From Podarcis muralis (Eukaryota): 64,000 bases of DNA. Within the stretch, counting starts at the first letter, position 1; every line of letters begins with the position of its first letter. Below, piece after piece: positions 34,085 to 61,258 of the stretch. Where the stretch lies: NCBI RefSeq assembly GCF_964188315.1, contig NC_135655.1, positions 111,414,001-111,478,000 of the forward strand, in the 5' to 3' direction. The notes below the pieces were generated by a model. That model was not told where the DNA came from. It worked only from the letters and a program-made list of their open reading frames with translations, and made no database searches. The translations under genes were made by a program, and so were the position numbers.

Positions 34085-34880
34085 CAGCAGATTCCCTCCT
34101 CCCGGGTTCCCTTTGAAGCGGCAATGTGGGAGGGGAGCAGCTTACACTCGTGTAAACAGCTCCTCTCCCACTTTCCTCCTTCAAAGCAACCACGGAGGAG
34201 GGAAGGAAGGGGACCATGGATCCTCCGCTGCTCCAGGCTTCAGCGGATTCCCCCCTCCGTGATTGCTTTGAAGCAGGAAAGTGGGAGGGGGGCAGCTTAC
34301 ACTCGTGTAAGCAGCTCCTCTCCCACTTTCCTCCTTCAAAGCAACTACGGAGGAGGGAAGGAAGAGGACCATGGATCCTCCGCTGCTGGAGGCTTCAGCA
34401 GATTCCCCCCTCCGTGATTGCTTTGAAGCAGGAAAGTGGGAGGGGGGCAGCTTACACTCGTGTAAGCAGCTCCTCTCCCACTTTCCTCCTTCAAAGCAAC
34501 TACGGAGGAGGGAAGGAAGAGGACCATGGATCCTCCGCTGCTGGAAGCTTCAGCAGATTCCCCCCTCCGTGATTGCTTTGAAGCAGGAAAGTGGGAGGGG
34601 GGCAGCTTACACTCGTGTAAACAGCTCCTCTCCCACTTTCCTCCTTCAAAGCAACTACGGAGGAGGGAAGGAAGGGGACCATGGATCCTCCGCTGCTCCA
34701 GGCTTCAGCGGATTCCCCCCTCCGTGATTGCTTTGAAGCAGGAAAGTGGGAGGGGGGCAGCTTACACTCGTGTAAGCAGCTCCTCTCCCACTTTCCTCCT
34801 TCAAAGCAACTACGGAGGAGGGAAGGAAGGGGACCATGGATCCTCCGCTGCTGGAGGCTTCAGCGGATTTCCCCCCCCCC
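34085..34880. repeat. Tandem array of five ~155-bp units, each with a 49-nt-arm inverted repeat
   Basis: cagc(a/g)gatt unit starts at 34085, 34241, 34396, 34551, 34706, 34861. Confidence 0.95.
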
Positions 34881-35019
34881 AGCTTAAGTGGGGTGGGGGA
34901 AGTGTGGCAGGTAGGGGGGTACCTACCTAGACAGTGAAGCCACATGTCTCTCCAATGAAAATTGGGAGTGGGCATTGTGTGAAGTGGCTGTGGATCTCCT
35001 GCCGCAGAACTGTAGGACT

Positions 35020-52123: not shown

Positions 52124-52685
52124 CACCCCTTCCTGGAAGTTTACCTCCTGGAGTTGAAAGGAGCATCACAAGACCATGTTTGTAGATGGAGGATTACACC
52201 TCCCCTCCCTATGTGCCAAAATCCTGATCCTAATCAGACCTTTCCCCACAACTGTTATTTAGGGCTAAAAACCGCTAGACACTGATGAACCTTGCTTGAG
52301 AAGCAAGATCTGGCTGAGCTCCATTGTGCCTTGGGTTTCTCATGGGGATCGATCTCCAGTCAAACTGTGTTTATAAAACATGCATATATCAGGAGAAAGT
52401 GTGTATTAAACAGATCTGTTAGTGAAAAGAACATGCAAAAACGTGAAATTAGATGAAATTGCTTGCAAAAAAATCAGTACATTGGTGAAATCTGCATACC
52501 AAAAATGCATATATTGGGAGAATTTCATGCTAAAATGCTGGTGAATTTTCATAATGGTATGATAATGATAATCTCTGTCAAATACAACTTAAACTAAGGT
52601 TGCTTCACAATGACCTGTTCATAGAACACCCATCCTGTTGCACAAAGTTTTCAGCGAGGCTACACAATGCCAGCTGTTTGTTGTG

Positions 52686-53141
52686 TGTTAGGGTTCCAAG
52701 GGGTTGCTCGAGAGCAAGCAGGCAAATGCCTCCCTGCTAGGCTGTGAAGCCTAGCTTTTGATGCCAAAATAAATTTTATCTGTCCAGAGCGCCACTCTCT
52801 CATGGCTTGCTCATTCGCTGACAGAATCCGTGAGTGGGAGGTCCTTAAACCTTCCCCAGCAGAGTAGTTTCTTGACGCCCAGTCTGCGCCTCCCCTCTCG
52901 GTGCAGAAGCTTACTGCGCAAGGAGGGTGTGGGTAACGGAGGACCTCTCTCCTCCCTGCTTTGCCCAGGCAAGGTGTCCTGGTACCGCTTCACCTCCTCC
53001 GAGCCCTGAAGCTCCTCTCCACTGGAGGCGTGGTTACTCTCCTCCGCTGAGGAGGAGCTGCTCCCCACGATCTTTGGGGGCTCTCTGTAATCCATCCGGC
53101 TTTTCCCGTCTCCCCCCTGAGCCAATAGCAGTTCCCTGACA
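52686..53141 (-). mobile_element. Solo LTR (Gypsy-like), 456 bp
   Basis: TGTCAGG...CCTAACA (minus); 5-bp TSD TTGTG. Confidence 0.88.
52811..53140 (-). CDS. LTR-encoded open frame, 109 aa, entered from LTR nt 2; unknown acidic/Arg-rich CW-motif peptide
   Basis: VRELLLAQGG...GPPLPTPSLRSKLLHREGRRRLGVKKLLCWGRFKDLPLTDSVSE*; C-terminus conserved with the 59756 ORF. Expression from this solo copy is not implied. Confidence 0.55.
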   Translation of the reverse strand, partial: VRELLLAQGGDGKSRMDYREPPKIVGSSSSSAEESNHASSGEELQGSEEVKRYQDTLPGQSREERGPPLPTPSLRSKLLHREGRRRLGVKKLLCWGRFKDLPLTDSVSE

Positions 53142-53414
53142 TTGTGCATTTATTCCACTTTGCTCGCAGAGCGGTTAAACAGCATCAGGTTAAGGAATTG
53201 CTATCCGACATTTTCCAGTGAACTTCCCCATCACTTTCCTTTCCCCCACAAAAAGTTTAGAAGTTCATTGGGCAAGAACACTAAATCCATGTTAATTGTG
53301 CAACCTGAATTTGCTAGCATGCCATTGAATCACACCTGTGGAACAGTGATGGTCTGGTCTAAGAGGTTTCCAAAGAAAACCTTATATTTATGTCCATCAG
53401 CAACAACAAAAATA

Positions 53415-53769
53415 CAGTGGTACCTCGCAAGACGAATGCCTCGCAAGACAAAAAACTCGCAAGACAAAAGGGTTTTTGGTTTTTTGAGTTGCTTTGCAAG
53501 ACGATTTTTCCCTATGGGCTTGCTTTGCAAGACGGAAACGTCTTGCAAGTTTGTTTCCTTTTTCTTAACACCGTTAATACAGTTGCGAATTGACTTCAAG
53601 GAGCAACTCATAGCACGCGGTGTGGTAGCCTTTTTGAGGTTTTTGAAGACTTTGGTGATTTTTGAAGCTTTTCCAAAACTTTTCCGAAACCGTGCTTCGC
53701 AAGACGAAAAAAAGCGCAAGACGAAAAAACTTGCGGAACGAATTAATTTCGTCTTGCGAGGCACCACTG
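53415..53769. mobile_element. Tigger/pogo-like MITE
   Basis: TIR CAGTGGTACCTCGCAAGACGAA / TTCGTCTTGCGAGGCACCACTG; TA TSD; repeated gcaagac motif. Confidence 0.9.
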
Positions 53770-55752
53770 TACTCCCAAATTGTTCTACTTCTCATAGGTT
53801 AGACGAGCTGAAATTATGGCAGGAATCTAGCAAACAATACAAGAACTTAGCCATTTGGTGCCACAATAGAATAAATAGCATGTCTCATAAACATATAATT
53901 TCTATCTGTTCCTAGTGCCATTTTGAGGCACTTACCCAAGCTCAGAAATGCTTGGTGTGCAGTTTGAAATCTGTTTATATTTTGGAGGGTGGAACAATAC
54001 CAGGGCAGAGGCAGCAAATAAATACCTACGCCTAAATGCAACTACCTTGCATACTGACGAAAGCACTGACTTTGAAAGGATGCACATGCTATCACAAAGA
54101 TGCAACCTTTCTTAATCCATAGTATCAAAAAAATGGGACATTTACACTCAGTGGAAGCTGGTAGGACAGAAGGCAGGAAGACTGACAGTAGGTTGAACCA
54201 GAGCCAACGTTAGATGGAAACAGAGTCAATGGTAGGCAAAGCCAACAGCTAATTCTGGATTTGTCTCCATCATACTTCCAACTGAATTCCACAGAGGCAA
54301 CAGGGAGACTAAGGAGGAGGAAGCTAACAGGCCTTGGACTGGTTGTAAGTAAGGAGGCAGGCAGGTGGGCTGAGGGTAGATTCAAGTTGGTGGGGCAGTG
54401 CCCCATTTGTCCTAATGGACCACAGTTTACAGTGGAAGCCTAAATCCTGTTTAGTCAGCAGTTCCATTGGTGTCTTTTTCAGGCATTATCACCTAAAGAT
54501 GTGTGTTTAGCGTTTAATATTTGTGAGGCGCCAGGTGCATTTTTCACCTTTTTATTGGCCACTTGTGACCAAGTGAAGATGCCAGGATGGTGCCTGATGT
54601 CTCCACTATTGTGAGGTGCGTGCCTGGGGATCCTTGGATCTTGACTAGCATCCTGTAGAATTCTATCCATTAAATTTTATCTGCACAATCAAAGTGAATT
54701 TCAGGAACCAAAAGGTCGTATTGAAAAATATGACTTTTGAGCCACCTGGCACAAAAATGACAACTGGGCACACCATTTTGGTAACTGTAACCCTGGTTTA
54801 AGAAGCCATTTGGCCCCTAGCTTCTGTATCTGAGTTTCTAATACTGCTCCTGTAGCCCCTTTGCAAGTCTTCCAGAGAATTTTTGTAGAGGGGAGCTTTA
54901 TGTATCAGCGTCCTTGCTCACACAGAGAGCTTCCACAGATACACAAGGGGGGCCCCCACTGCCAAGGTTGTGTAGTCATGTGGATCCAAGGGATGGGACT
55001 AAACATGCAGCCACGCTGCACCTCTGTTTCCCCTTCTAAATAACTCCTGAAGAGGGTTAACCCGGGATGTATTTCCTGATCAGTGTGCTAAAGATAGCAA
55101 CCATGTAGTCCTTGTCTATGCATAGATACGAGAAGTAAGACCCACTGAGGGGGGGGGGAATGATGCCCTGATTTTCCAAAAGGCTTCCTTGCTTTTTATG
55201 AGCAAAAAAGAAAAAAGAAAAATCTTGACCTCCTAAGACAGTGAAACTTTTTAGACTGTCTGCAATACTTTGTATTGAATTTGCTAAATCCACTTTCTCT
55301 CAACTGATTGGCTCGGCTGTTTCCCATCCATCCTGTGGGCTGTTGAAAATGATTTCCGATACTCTCAAAATAACAGGGCCTCTAGACCACAATCAAGCAG
55401 AAGGGCTGCAGTTTAACTCAATAACTGAGTTCCACTTGTGCAGTGCTTTTCTCCTGCCCCTGAGATGTTGGATTATCAATTAGGTTCAGCAATTGAGCTC
55501 TTTAAAGAAAAGAAATGGAAATAAGATGAATCTCTGTAGTTTAACATGGGGGCATGGGAAGTAGCAGTCACAACCGAAAGCAGATTTGGAGAAATGGAAC
55601 AGGAGATAATTAACTCCCACTTCCAACCTGCCCTCACCCCCTTAAATCTAGCTGTGCCCTGTTGGGATCCTATAAATAGGCCTTATTTAAATTGTGTCAT
55701 CACAGTAAGTTTCAAGATAAAACAAATATTTTCTTTGCTATGTTAGAACAAA

Positions 55753-56065
55753 GGCTACATTCACACCATAAGTTTAAAACACTGTGTCACTTTACACAGT
55801 CATGGCTTTCCCCCAATAATTCTGGGAGTTGTAGTTTATTAGGAGACCCCTATTCTCCTCATAGAGCTACCGCTTACAGAATGATATAACAATGAATCCC
55901 CCTCTTCAAGGAACTCTGGGAATGGTAGCTCTCTGTGAGGGGAACAGGGGTCTCCTAGCCACTCTCAGCTACAGCTACAGCTACAGCTCCCAGAATTCTT
56001 TGGAGAAAGACATGAGTGTTTAAAGTGGTATCATAGTACTTCAAATGTATTGTGTGAATGTGGTT
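55753..56065. mobile_element. Palindromic MITE; partial relatives near 1405, 2590, 15380, 32190
   Basis: ggctacattcacac / gtgtgaatgtggtt termini; internal inverted taggagacccct / aggggtctccta. Confidence 0.65.
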
Positions 56066-56100
56066 CAAGGGTCTATAATAACTTAGGGAGCAATCCTAAC

Positions 56101-56369
56101 TAGGGCCAGATTTAGGTTTGATGAGGCCCTAAGCTACTGAAGGTAATGGGGCCCTTTATATGTCCAGATTTGTCACTGTTTTTTTATGTTGAATATATGC
56201 TACATGGTAATTTATGGACCTAATAGGTATCTAAAGTGATTTTATTTGTTTTTTAACTTATATTTTGGAAATGTACATCGAGGTTTTTTTCCTTTAAATT
56301 TTTTTGGGGGGCCAAGAGAGTGGGGCCCTAAGCTATAGCTTGTTTAGCTTATACGTAAATCCAGCACTG
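56101..56369. mobile_element. hAT-type MITE
   Basis: Imperfect TIR TAGGGCCAGATTTA / TAAATCCAGCACTG; perfect 8-bp TSD ATCCTAAC. Confidence 0.85.
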
Positions 56370-56427
56370 ATCCTAACCTCCAGTTTGCTATGCAGGGGGA
56401 GGTATAGTTGTAGAATTCAGCAGAAGT

Positions 56428-56565
56428 NNNNNNNNNNNNNNNNNNNNNNNNNNNNNNNNNNNNNNNNNNNNNNNNNNNNNNNNNNNNNNNNNNNNNNNNN
56501 NNNNNNNNNNNNNNNNNNNNNNNNNNNNNNNNNNNNNNNNNNNNNNNNNNNNNNNNNNNNNNNNN
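56428..56565. other. Assembly gap (138 N)
   Basis: Run of N. Confidence 1.
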
Positions 56566-57369
56566 CCATTCTGCCTCACATCATTTTTAAAGTTTTTGTA
56601 AGAATACAAAATTCACCTAACTGAAGTGATAATTGCTTGACACTGCCCTCAAAACACTGACAAAAACCACTATTGTCTCTCCCCATTCATTAGGACTCTA
56701 CTTTCCCTATATACAATGTCAACTGACAGCACAGCCGTACCCATTTCCACTCAGAAGTAGGTCCTCTTGAATTCAGTGGGGCTTACTCCCAAGTAAGTGG
56801 GTTGAAGATTGCAGTCTTACTCTACAAATATATTGTTCTATTATGCATCAGATTTGATTTCAAGCAGCCTATGCATGATGAGAGGAACTCAGAAAGGCAA
56901 CGCTACATAGAAGTCAGTCATGAAGAAAATGTAATATAGCATTTGCTGGAGGTGCAGGAAATGGTTTGCCAGTGGTCGGATTGCTAATAAAGCACAGCAC
57001 ATCAGGGAGTCAAGATTCAGAAGAAACATGAAAGAGAAACAATAGTCCATAAGTGGAAGGGATAGAATTATGACAGGTCAGGAGAGTAAACAGCAAACTA
57101 GGAAATTAATTGAAGCGCAGCTGAACAAACTGGTTAACTGTGATGTATGGAGGAGTTTAATAAGGTAAGTCCCTCCTGTGTATCGATTCAAGAAAAGGAC
57201 GTGCCAATCAAACAGAACAGCTAAGCAACCAAATAAGACAAATGAGCAAACTGTTCAGATTGCATTGCCTGACATAGCATCATGTGGTCAGGTCAGGAGG
57301 TGTTATGTGATATCAACAGGGAACCAGCAACAAAGAGTCACAGGCAGCACACACCACTCTATGCAGAGC

Positions 57370-58963
57370 TGTGAATGAGCATACTTCCAAAAATGATTTT
57401 CCTATTTCAATCCATTCTGGTGATAGGAATGGCGAGCTGCTTCAAGGACTGTCAGAAGGATATATCAAGATATATTTGGAATAGGGGGGGAAACCAGAAT
57501 CAAACACAAATTGTTGATCGATATAAAAGAAAGAGGAGGATTTGCATTACCCGGCTGGAAATTATACTATGAAGCAGCTTGCCTTTCCTGGATACGAGAA
57601 TGGATGACATTAAATAACACCGACCTGCTAGACTTGGAAGGGTTCGACAATAGATACGGTTGACATGCCTATCTAGGTTATGAGAAGGCTAAGGTGCACA
57701 AAGGTTTCCTAAACCACGTGATCAGAAGATTGTTATATAAAGTGCGGTCCAAACATAAGACTTTATCAGAGCCCCAAACGCCATGGTGGCTGTCCCTGAC
57801 GGAAGCATTCTCAGTTAAAAAGAAGAATATGAAGAGTAATGGCCAACTTACAAATATTTGCTGGAAGAAAAAGATGACAAGTTAAAAAAAATTAAAAATT
57901 GAAGAAATTAGGTACCATTTGACTGACTGGATGCAATATTTACAATTGAATGAGACTTTCCAAAAAGACAAAAAAAAAAGGCTTTTCCACAGAACCTTCA
58001 AGACTCAATAAAGATCTGATTCAAAATAACTATAAACCATTCTCTAAAATGTATAGGTTACTCCTGGACTGGGAGGTCAAGGATGAAGAAGTCAAATCCG
58101 TAATAGTGCAGTGGGCTAAGGATTTTGGCTATAACATTCACATCGAATCTTGGGAGGGACTCTGGAGGGAAGATATTAAATTTACGTCGTGTTAGAACCT
58201 AAAAGAAAACTGTATGAAAATACTTTACAGCTGGCACCTAACACCTATTAAATTGGCTAAAATGTTTGGATCTAGGTCAAGTATTTGTTGGAAATGCAGG
58301 GAGGCAGAAGGCACATGGATCCACATGTGGTGGAACTGTAAAAAGATCAGACAGTTTTGGGAAATGATTTATAATGAACTCAATAAAATGTTTAAATGCT
58401 CTTTCCCTAAAAAGCCTGAAGCCTTCCTGCTAGGAATTATGGGTAACGTAATCTCAAAAAAGTTCAGGAGAGTCTTTATGTATGCTACAGTAGATGTCAG
58501 AATTCTAATCGTAAAAGGTTGGAAGGGAGAAGTTATCCCATCCAAATCAGACTGGCAAAATAAACTAAGAGTATGCTGAACTAGCAAGACTATCAGCAAG
58601 GCTATGAGATGTTACAGATGAAAAATTTACCAGAGTGTGGGACATTTACAGAGTTTATGTAAAAGAATGCTGTCAAAATATTAATCCGTTGGCAGGTTTT
58701 GATTGAGTTTCTGCGTTTAATAGGACAACTTTATAAATTTAAAGTAATTAGAACAATGTGGAGAAAATAAAGTTAAGGAATCCAATTCGGGAACATAATG
58801 GGAAGATCAGAGGTCATCCTAAATTCAATCACAAAATGATGTACAAAACAAGTATCAATTAAGGAATGAACGTTTATTTATTTTTATTTTGTCTTTAACA
58901 TCTGTGGATTATTTCTGTTATACAGCTTTTAAACCAATAAAGCGTTTTTTTAAAAAAAGAAGA
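57370..58963 (+). mobile_element. 5'-truncated L1 LINE (ORF2 C-terminal part with frameshifts/stops, 3' UTR, A tail)
   Basis: ILPKMIFLFQ, GG..LP..KLYY and C-terminal Zn knuckle CWKCREAEGTWIHMWWNC; aataaa plus A-rich end. Confidence 0.9.
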
Positions 58964-59030
58964 ATGTGTGTGTTCTTTTATGCAAGGTAATTCTTCCAGC
59001 TGTAATTTAGAATGATAGTATCCAAAATAA

Positions 59031-59616
59031 TGCGATGAGCCCCACAGCTCTGTTAGGACTGGGATGGGGTTGATAGAAGAAACCAAGGGAGCCTGACTGA
59101 TGGGAAACAGAGTCGAACAAGGAGGGCTCTCCCTAGTGTACCTCGACTTCAACCACCCCTGGCAGAGCAGAGTCTCAGTAAAGGCTGGGGAGGCCTGTGG
59201 GCAGCTGAGGGGGGAAGCAATTCAGGAATCTGAATGGGAGGGTATGGCAATTGCACCTCCATGTTTGAGAGCCCCACCCCACCCCCAACGAGTGCTCATT
59301 TGCAATCCTGACATTCTTGCAAACGGGTCTCAAGAATGAGCCTCATCTTTGAAAGCTTGTTATGCAGGGGTATGGAAGCTACTGGGACATCTCTATCCAG
59401 TCCTGAATGTCTTGTCTGCTTCTGAATCATGACTCCTGAACTCTTTTTCCACTGCCAAGATGGAACCATTACTTGCCTGAATAAAGATCTCTTTGTTACT
59501 TACACATAAGAGACTCCGCGTATGTTGGGCGTGAGATCTACTTCAAAGTGCAAAAGAAACACATGGAGGCCACGGCTGTGACCAGATAACTGGCAGATAG
59601 CTGAAGTTTCATCACA
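59031..59616 (+). mobile_element. Probable older solo LTR
   Basis: Inverted ends TGCGATGA / TCATCACA; AATAAA at 59480; TSD only 3/5, so boundaries uncertain. Confidence 0.45.
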
Positions 59617-59649
59617 GATTAGGGAGCATGCATGACCCTTTAGCAATTC

Positions 59650-60077
59650 TGTAAAGGGAGTTGGGGTTGCTTGTGCGTAAAGGGTGCTACTGTTCTAGGC
59701 AACGTAGCCTGGCTAAACCTTTCCCTGGCTGGACAGCCCTTTCTCCATGGCTGTGTCAGTCACTGGCAGAATCCGTCAGTGGGCGTTTCCTGAACTTCTT
59801 CCAACATAGAAGCTCTTTGACGCCAAGTCTCCTCCTAGCCTCCCTGCGTGGAAGTCTCCTGCGCAGAGTGGGCGTGCCCAACGGAGGTCCTGGGCTCTCC
59901 CCGCTGGTCTCTGTGGAAGAGTCTTGGAGCCCTCTCTCCGCAGTTCCCCCTTGCTTCCTGGTGTCACTCCTATTACCTTCCTCAAAGGAAGTGTTCTCTC
60001 TCCCCCTGCTGGTCCCTTCTCCTGCATCGTTGGGGAGCCTTACCTCCACTCTAGGCTCCGATGGCAGTTCCCTGACA
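59650..60077 (-). mobile_element. Solo LTR (Gypsy-like), 428 bp
   Basis: TGTCAGGGAACTGC start shared with the 52686 LTR; 5-bp TSD AATTC. Confidence 0.88.
59756..60076 (-). CDS. LTR-encoded open frame, 106 aa, no Met; homologue of the 52811 ORF
   Basis: VRELPSEPRVEV...GPPLGTPTLRRRLPRREARRRLGVKELLCWKKFRKRPLTDSASD*. Confidence 0.55.
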   Translation of the reverse strand, partial: VRELPSEPRVEVRLPNDAGEGTSRGRENTSFEEGNRSDTRKQGGTAERGLQDSSTETSGESPGPPLGTPTLRRRLPRREARRRLGVKELLCWKKFRKRPLTDSASD

Positions 60078-61258
60078 AATTCTCACAGAACTGCCTTTCC
60101 CTCTACAAAGAATGCCCTGTATTGCTTTCACACAAGATTTCTGTGGAATGGGGATAATGTGTTCATGCCTGTTATAATCAATCCAGACAAAGTTGTTACC
60201 AAATAGTTGTTTTCTCCCTTTTTTTCAGCTCTAATGTTTGGTTATGTTTGTCTTATAACACAATCACAGCACTAGGCTTTCCAGTGTGTACTAGGCAAGT
60301 GCTGTTGAGGCTTTTCAGGGCTACTGTCCTTTGAGTTAGTTGCTGCCTCCTCACTCCTGATAATTTGCACTCATAAGCAAAAGAAAACAAAATGAGCAAC
60401 TACTGTGGACACAAAATAAAAAAGGAACAGATAGTAATGCCCCTCTCAAAAAGCAAACAAGCCAGGGAGTCCACGGTCATGTAAGTTAACAAGCACAGAA
60501 GCTGCATTAAAAGAAATAAGGAAGGAGGGAGCTACTTTAAAGAGAAAGTAGCAGAGAGAAGCAGAACGTTTGTTGTAACATAACCTACTTCCAAATAAGC
60601 ATATTGTAGGATTTTATCCATGGAGATCACTCTCCAGTGGGACAGAAACATTCCCTTTGCTTGAGGCCAGGCGAGAAATGGGCCAATATGATCACTACAG
60701 GTCAGATAAGTCCACAGTTAAAACTGCAATTTGAGCTTTATCTCCTATAGCAAAAATATTGGGAGTTTTATTTAAATGGAGATATTTTCTTTTTAAAGGC
60801 AAGCAACCTTTTAGCAACTTTTGCTGTTTAAAAGGTTCTGCTTGCCTGGCTTTCAACTCCAGACTGCAATGTTTTAGCAACTTGCACTGTAACATAACCT
60901 TAGCAGCATTTAAATGAAATTGTTTTCCCTTGTAATCGCCATCATAGCATAAAAAAAATACTCAGGTCATCAAAAGTTCTCTCCAAGGACTTCAGCCAAG
61001 CCCATTTCACCTGAAAATTGCCTCAAAACAGAGCCAAGGCTTTGGAACTTAACTCAGAGAAGCAGTGTGACTCCACACACACACACACACACACACACAC
61101 TATACATAAAAATGTAACACTGTCATCACAATCTTGGGTTTCCATGAAGTCAGGGTGGGATACGGAAGGGAAGAAAAAGGCATGAGAATGAGATGGGAGA
61201 AATGCAATATTCTGTTCCGTGAACCAAAGCTTAATCAATGTGACTTGTTCTCTTACAA

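Follow-up and report, generated by a model that had tools for sequence, protein, structure and literature searches.

Why two solo long terminal repeats (LTRs) in one stretch of the Podarcis muralis genome should each contain a stop-free reading frame, and what the encoded peptide might do, is the question raised by the 64,000 nucleotides (nt) of contig NC_135655.1 analyzed here (positions 111,414,001 to 111,478,000, referred to as the window). The two LTRs represent families A and B, which belong to the Tf1/sushi-type chromoviruses (Ty3/gypsy), the tree for this group having been built from copies of this genome only. They are regarded as solo LTRs because each runs from TG to CA and is flanked by a 5-bp target duplication; the family A LTR reads from 53141 to 52686 with the ends TGTC...AACA, and the family B LTR from 60077 to 59650 with the ends TGTC...TACA. 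Both elements are encoded on the minus strand, a point left unstated in the original prediction, which had described stop-free frames of 109 (A) and 106 (B) codons that begin at LTR nt 2 and end in TGA. Both frames were recovered, and the family B frame (59756), reported to lack an ATG, proved free of Met on re-reading.

Full-length relatives leave very little doubt about the anatomy of the pol tail to which this frame belongs. The family B element L061 encodes gag, protease, reverse transcriptase, RNase H, integrase, an SH3 domain and a chromodomain (Pfam matches); its pol is broken in places, and a 679-aa integrase-chromodomain frame crosses the polypurine tract and stops at the LTR TGA. The integrase/chromodomain frame likewise continues through the polypurine tract into the LTR in L062 (family B) and L096 (family A), and in the full-length B element the gag and pol frames overlap. 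Of 23 longer loci examined, 12 yielded a pair of LTRs, and in each of these pol stops 70-120 codons into the 3' LTR, in L149 through an early stop. The other 11 consisted of L096, which was mis-parsed, L140, which reads past the LTR, L148, L151 and L153, which break early or are interrupted, and L134, L137, L138, L141, L142 and L143, which have the full tail and for which no LTR pair of their own was found in the stretch. A search with the SH3 family yielded 30 loci from many subfamilies. In family K, the youngest family (the LTRs of L144 are 100% identical), 74 of 150 matches lay in frames of more than 300 residues, 63 of them in one 1374-residue frame, and the remaining 76 spanned 102-169 residues, as expected of 5' or solo LTRs. 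In these relatives pol continues into the LTR frame, which is therefore its terminal part. Entry of the frame from pol across the polypurine tract, as originally proposed, was thus seen in A, in B and in further subfamilies once full-length elements had been recovered.

The frame is widely retained among other copies in the 1.52 Gb of genome searched. DNA searches found copies 91-94% identical to the family A LTR (40 scored of 1442 first-look candidates) and 96-99% identical to the family B LTR (40 scored of 2243); some of the latter copies border internal element sequence. The family B frame has the same end codon in 29 of 30 loci, and the family A frame ends at codon 109-110 in 19 of 30, the remaining 11 carrying private stops, private frameshifts or a lost stop. 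The solo copies in the window are probably relics that make no protein.

The last 44 codons of the two frames bear the marks of selection on the protein. As counted earlier, 29 of the 44 residues are identical between A and B, 14 of these through different codons. Mismatches at codon positions 1, 2 and 3 number 8, 10 and 22, with pS (proportion of synonymous differences) 0.62, pN (the nonsynonymous counterpart) 0.19 and omega (dN/dS) 0.17; the other two sense frames of the same stretch gave omega 1.68 and 0.92, and the antisense frame with shared third positions gave 0.21, as expected. None of 5000 random placements of the same A/B substitutions reached 29 identities (mean 20.7). For six subfamilies, represented by one natural copy each and compared in 15 non-independent pairs, five of them saturated at synonymous sites, the 37 codons before the self-primer described below (primer codons left out) gave pS 0.67, pN 0.23 and a pooled omega of 0.16. 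Omega across subfamilies had been set beforehand as the test of purifying selection at the protein level, and with values this far from 1, together with invariant residues specified by mixed codons, that claim stands. Changes among the six subfamilies outside the primer fell on codon positions 1/2/3 in the numbers 193/98/273. By region, omega in the same subfamilies was 0.08 for the SH3 domain plus chromodomain, 0.17 for the linker that carries FxGF motifs before the LTR, and about 0.5 for the acidic spacer in the unique 3' region (U3) of the LTR. Within-family omega (A 0.40-0.56, B 0.27-0.53) was not relied on, being subject to top-hit choice bias and probably to CpG decay.

Fourteen of the 44 block residues are invariant among eight copies, 10 of the 14 using more than one codon, and Leu, Val, Cys, Trp, Phe and Pro positions are kept despite synonymous change. 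In the C-terminal block, the residues that never vary across the 14 aligned sequences are Cys-Trp, preceded by hydrophobic and followed by basic residues, and the net charge of the block is +5 to +15. The spacer in front varies in length, with the Cys codon at number 62, 63, 69, 84, 85, 87, 91, 94 or 95, and the frame is always kept; nine Cys positions all in frame would have a chance of about 1.5e-4 if the eight length changes were free. Unlike this frame-keeping spacer, the distance from the stop to the LTR end shows all three residues modulo 3. The N-terminal halves, set aside earlier as unalignable between A and B, are not free of constraint, as omega between sister subfamilies is about 0.2-0.55. 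The proposed RRR-x7-CW-TDS module survives in part: Cys-Trp with hydrophobic and basic flanks is common to all, and the RRR-x7-CW spacing is not universal. Its TDS end cannot be a purely protein motif and is partly an RNA constraint, because it overlaps the 11-nt self-primer and is missing from distant subfamilies. On the alignments at hand, the more deeply conserved motif is Cys-Trp between basic flanks.

No tRNA primer site is present 3' of the 5' LTR. Instead, all 12 elements tested have an 11-nt stretch after the 5' LTR that is the complement of a site inside the LTR; between subfamilies the two partners change together, and in one element the 3' LTR copy has a single mismatch. Full-length B elements show this complementarity for the family B site, which overlaps P-L-T-D-S, residues absent from distant subfamilies; the family A site was placed by position from families B, E, K, M and H, the primer-binding site being missing in L096. 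Passages on Tf1/sushi elements describe the self-primer as the RNA 5' end (bioRxiv 10.1101/2022.12.06.519325, PMC6317226). No more than about 35 nt separate the pol stop from the self-primer, and the frame therefore fills essentially all of U3. A transcript started within a solo LTR would lack the frame, which lies upstream of the inferred RNA start. That start is not fixed by the five molecule ends seen at L144 position 1899, about 33 nt beyond it. Family K is transcribed end to end (four RNA runs), and in two bulk libraries most first mates mapped to the minus strand, usually a sign of sense RNA in stranded libraries.

Outside the window, full-length relatives carry one or two acidic FxGF motifs between chromodomain and polypurine tract. 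Each consists of a hydrophobic head, Phe, an acidic Ser/Thr linker and FxGF, at near-fixed spacing and often twice. Of 19 copies, 18 have the pattern F-x7-9-[FM]xGF and 11 the strict D/ExExFxGF, Met replacing the first Phe in motif 1 of family K. The TND-interacting motif (TIM) of host proteins is described in excerpts of PMC9987994 as a helix, an acidic linker and FxGF, often in tandem, with FxGF essential for LEDGF and HRP2 binding, and its consensus is given in part of PMC8022399. The host genome encodes PSIP1, one exon of which matches Podarcis muralis exactly and so indicates a lacertid lizard, and a second LEDGF-domain gene. A complex prediction of two FxGF motifs with the Podarcis LEDGF IBD, alignment-free and run without controls, scored 0.28 (mark 0.34) and is evidence neither way. 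The family B chromodomain lacks cage aromatics 1 and 3, and 17 of 18 FxGF-bearing copies have a residue other than an aromatic at cage position 3, the remaining one not being parsed. According to PMC3605345, cage-less chromodomains were known only from plants as of 2013.

Two other families frame these observations. Family C (4230 first-look candidates) has an intact three-aromatic cage and no FxGF, and its U3 tail is unrelated to that of A and B, lacks Cys-Trp and carries RRSARL, which lies within the HMGN nucleosome-binding consensus RRSARLSA (PMC13347269, in part). In L064 the family C pol runs about 120 codons into the LTR, ending in the HMGN-like RRSARL stretch. Family N (two copies, L105 and L118), in which pol stops before the polypurine tract and the LTR has a plain TATA box, is a natural control.

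Taken as a whole, the explanation that we favor, with some reservation and on comparisons of sequence, is that the U3-coded integrase tail with its FxGF motifs tethers new copies to host chromatin. Because pol crosses the polypurine tract and occupies U3, each LTR encodes the integrase end, its LTR-coded part being an acidic spacer followed by the conserved basic Cys-Trp motif, a likely nuclear or chromatin tether. The disordered tail of about 200 residues would stay on integrase and tether the integration complex: the FxGF motifs may bind the TND/IBD of LEDGF or HRP2, readers of H3K36me2/3, the basic U3-coded end may grip nucleosomes or importins, and the two together could replace the chromodomain's own methyl-lysine reading. 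A more specific version, in which a cage-losing lineage equipped with host-type TIMs and a U3-encoded anchor rides LEDGF/HRP2 into H3K36-methylated gene bodies, we put forward only tentatively and consider doubtful. Should the FxGF motifs prove to bind LEDGF or HRP2, HIV and an endogenous retrotransposon would have come to use one tethering factor by different routes, and if the specific version is true, an endogenous element without an envelope has arrived on its own, through motif mimicry, at a lentiviral cofactor.

Several observations weigh against tethering. The U3 peptide matches no Pfam family, an Atlas search with it gave no usable match, and the whole-tail profile matched no PDB sequence. 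AlphaFold2 predicted the U3 peptide to be disordered apart from one short helix, with a predicted local distance difference test (pLDDT) of 60 and a predicted template modelling score (pTM) of 0.12. The basic block has no exact match to any tested nucleosome-binding motif, and its likeness to the LANA, foamy Gag and p12 tethers is one of arginine content. The FxGF/Cys-Trp families form one supported clade in the tree of own-genome copies, so loss of the cage and gain of FxGF count as a single event. Finally, each of the 11 elements with the Cys-Trp codons has them 25-31 nt upstream of the self-primer, at the expected core-promoter position; constraint on the DNA could therefore account for part of their invariance, and the two codons could in part have a promoter role. 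Chromosome position and flank GC were not used as a proxy for targeting, because element age and the mix of full-length and solo copies confound them; family K copies are uniform along contigs 1-7, and those of B and C are biased to the ends.

An alternative that we consider unlikely is that the basic block serves only as a nuclear localization signal (NLS) or general nucleic-acid binder, with FxGF binding something else or nothing. The net charge of the block would suit such a role, and PMC3605345 reports NLS-like basic stretches in plant chromovirus integrases and cites the Ty1 integrase NLS. The kept Leu, Val, Cys, Trp, Phe and Pro positions, however, exceed the needs of a charge patch, and the FxGF motifs keep their hydrophobic head, acidic Ser/Thr linker and near-fixed spacing, often in two copies. 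Also rather unlikely is that Cys-Trp forms a membrane anchor whose palmitoylated Cys would hold Gag-Pol or particles at a membrane, e.g. the nuclear envelope. Invariance in 14 of 14 sequences with hydrophobic residues before and basic residues after the pair, the one short helix predicted at Cys-Trp and a presumed likeness to palmitoylation sites speak for an anchor, but an amphipathic helix was rejected, since only 2 of 18 copies had a hydrophobic moment above that of shuffled sequences at p<0.05, and the family C U3 tail has no Cys-Trp.

That the frame is a by-product, with promoter and priming DNA conserved and pol merely reading through, is most improbable. It draws on the primer overlapping P-L-T-D-S, where the sequence is fixed by pairing, on TGYTGG at -25 to -31 from the primer and on family N with its early pol stop and TATA-box LTR; it is largely refuted for the block as a whole, Cys-Trp and primer codons excepted, by the third-position excess outside the primer and by nine distinct spacer lengths that are all in frame. 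A CRE-like (cAMP response element) sequence, TGGCGTCA, was likewise rejected as the cause of L-G-V-K, for it is lost in other subfamilies in which the residues are mostly kept. To a separate small gene of the nef/sag type, entered by its own ATG or a splice and possibly expressed from solo LTRs, we give hardly any credence, because Met at codon 16 in most family A copies and two gene models ending in the LTR frame are set against a Met-free family B, a frame upstream of the inferred RNA start and continuous with pol, and no splice joint listed on family K in the four RNA runs at a low depth of about 10.

These two models are P0004 and P0127 (Podarcis muralis UniRef entries), a flippase and a SEC7-domain gene model; their LTR-frame ends are probably annotation errors and possibly exonised LTRs, which makes the frame relevant to annotation. 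Protein searches returned few relatives, namely Podarcis muralis UniRef entries and unnamed Logan/ENA proteins, from libraries that hold few transposon tails; the Logan/ENA proteins P0128 and P0130 are diverged and keep L-L-C-W.

Among known systems, the closest in overall build are the Tf1/sushi chromoviruses (sushi-ichi, Amn-ichi/ni/san; V-clade), which have the same domain order, overlapping gag and pol, 5-bp target duplications and, from passages of bioRxiv 10.1101/2022.12.06.519325 and PMC6317226, self-priming. Compared with these, the lizard elements add a post-chromodomain tail of about 200 residues (half of it in U3), FxGF motifs and a cage-less chromodomain. Extension of the polyprotein into the 3' LTR is shared with plant CRM group A and some Reina (Bingo) elements, whose pol enters the 3' LTR with a putative targeting motif (PMC3059260, PMC3605345, both in part). 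In CRM group A, however, the CR motif, compared here by description only, replaces an HP1-like chromodomain, and the elements are mostly tRNA-primed and centromeric; the lizard elements keep a chromodomain, self-prime and have a U3 peptide without a Pfam match. The TIM/IBM (IBD-binding motif) regions of MLL1, JPO2, IWS1 and POGZ show the same head, acidic Ser/Thr linker, FxGF and tandem copies (PMC9987994, PMC8022399), but the candidate motifs of the lizard elements sit on a retrotransposon integrase tail. The pogo/Passer papers PMC9976928 and PMC7386202 make no mention of an LEDGF-binding motif. LANA, IE1, the foamy Gag chromatin-binding sequence (CBS) and MLV p12 are short, arginine-rich, disordered peptides on mobile-element proteins (PMC9040877, in part), and RRSARL of the family C tail is shared with the HMGN motif (PMC13347269); the A/B block has no exact match to viral tethers or HMGN and adds a Cys-Trp core.

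Of the analogues named in the original prediction, the CRM CR motif, with pol running into the LTR, remains apt. Nef and sag are weaker analogues because they are separate genes. Literature searches that did not extend to Butler et al. 2001, Repbase, Dfam or supplements turned up no vertebrate element whose pol enters the LTR and no retrotransposon bearing a TIM. The occurrence of FxGF motifs beside an LTR-coded tail and a cage-less chromodomain is new here. Vertebrate chromovirus LTRs have been treated as non-coding, and thousands of repeats per genome here have a selected coding U3, which places promoter region, self-primer and protein in one stretch and is thus of interest for LTR evolution. 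Insertion-site choice of vertebrate Ty3/gypsy elements has been little studied, and the tail offers short, discrete candidate motifs.

The coordinates of the two LTRs and their parts are collected in Table 1.

Table 1. Features of the family A and family B solo LTRs, in window coordinates.
Feature	Position	Strand	Remarks
Solo LTR, family A	52686..53141	(-)	456 bp; chromovirus Ty3/gypsy
Target duplication cacaa flanking family A LTR	52681-52685 and 53142-53146		
U3-encoded pol end, family A	52811..53140	(-)	109 codons + TGA; unjoined to pol in solo copy
Conserved basic block, family A	52814..52945	(-)	44 codons; Cys-Trp at 52861-52856
Inferred self-primer (RNA 5' end), family A	52825..52835	(-)	under P-L-T-D-S codons
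Solo LTR, family B	59650..60077	(-)	428 bp
Target duplication gaatt flanking family B LTR	59645-59649 and 60078-60082		
U3-encoded pol end, family B	59756..60076	(-)	106 codons + TGA; without Met
Conserved basic block, family B	59759..59890	(-)	44 codons; Cys-Trp at 59806-59801
Self-primer site, family B	59770..59780	(-)	LTR nt 298-308

Nested insertions were observed in family B elements elsewhere in the genome. Copia-like elements are nested in the family B element at L062-L063 (G000:C20:22.09-22.10 Mb), and a family C chromovirus is nested in another on the same contig (L064 1603-7206, minus strand). This contig (30 Mb) is rich in full-length and nested LTR elements, holds 24 of 148 family C insertions and could be a W-type chromosome.

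Three further features were noted in the window. An LTR-like repeat starting TGTCAG runs from 14983 to about 13940 on the minus strand; close to its start lies an acidic, Trp-rich frame, after which come degenerate tandem repeats. For this repeat, 150 matches were scored among 2952 candidates in the genome. An array of 155-bp GC-rich units, each with an 87% palindrome, occupies 34095-35014. Between about 57450 and 58960 on the plus strand, a putative broken 3' end of a long interspersed nuclear element (LINE) was recognized by eye from ORF2-like fragments, AATAAA and an A-rich tail.

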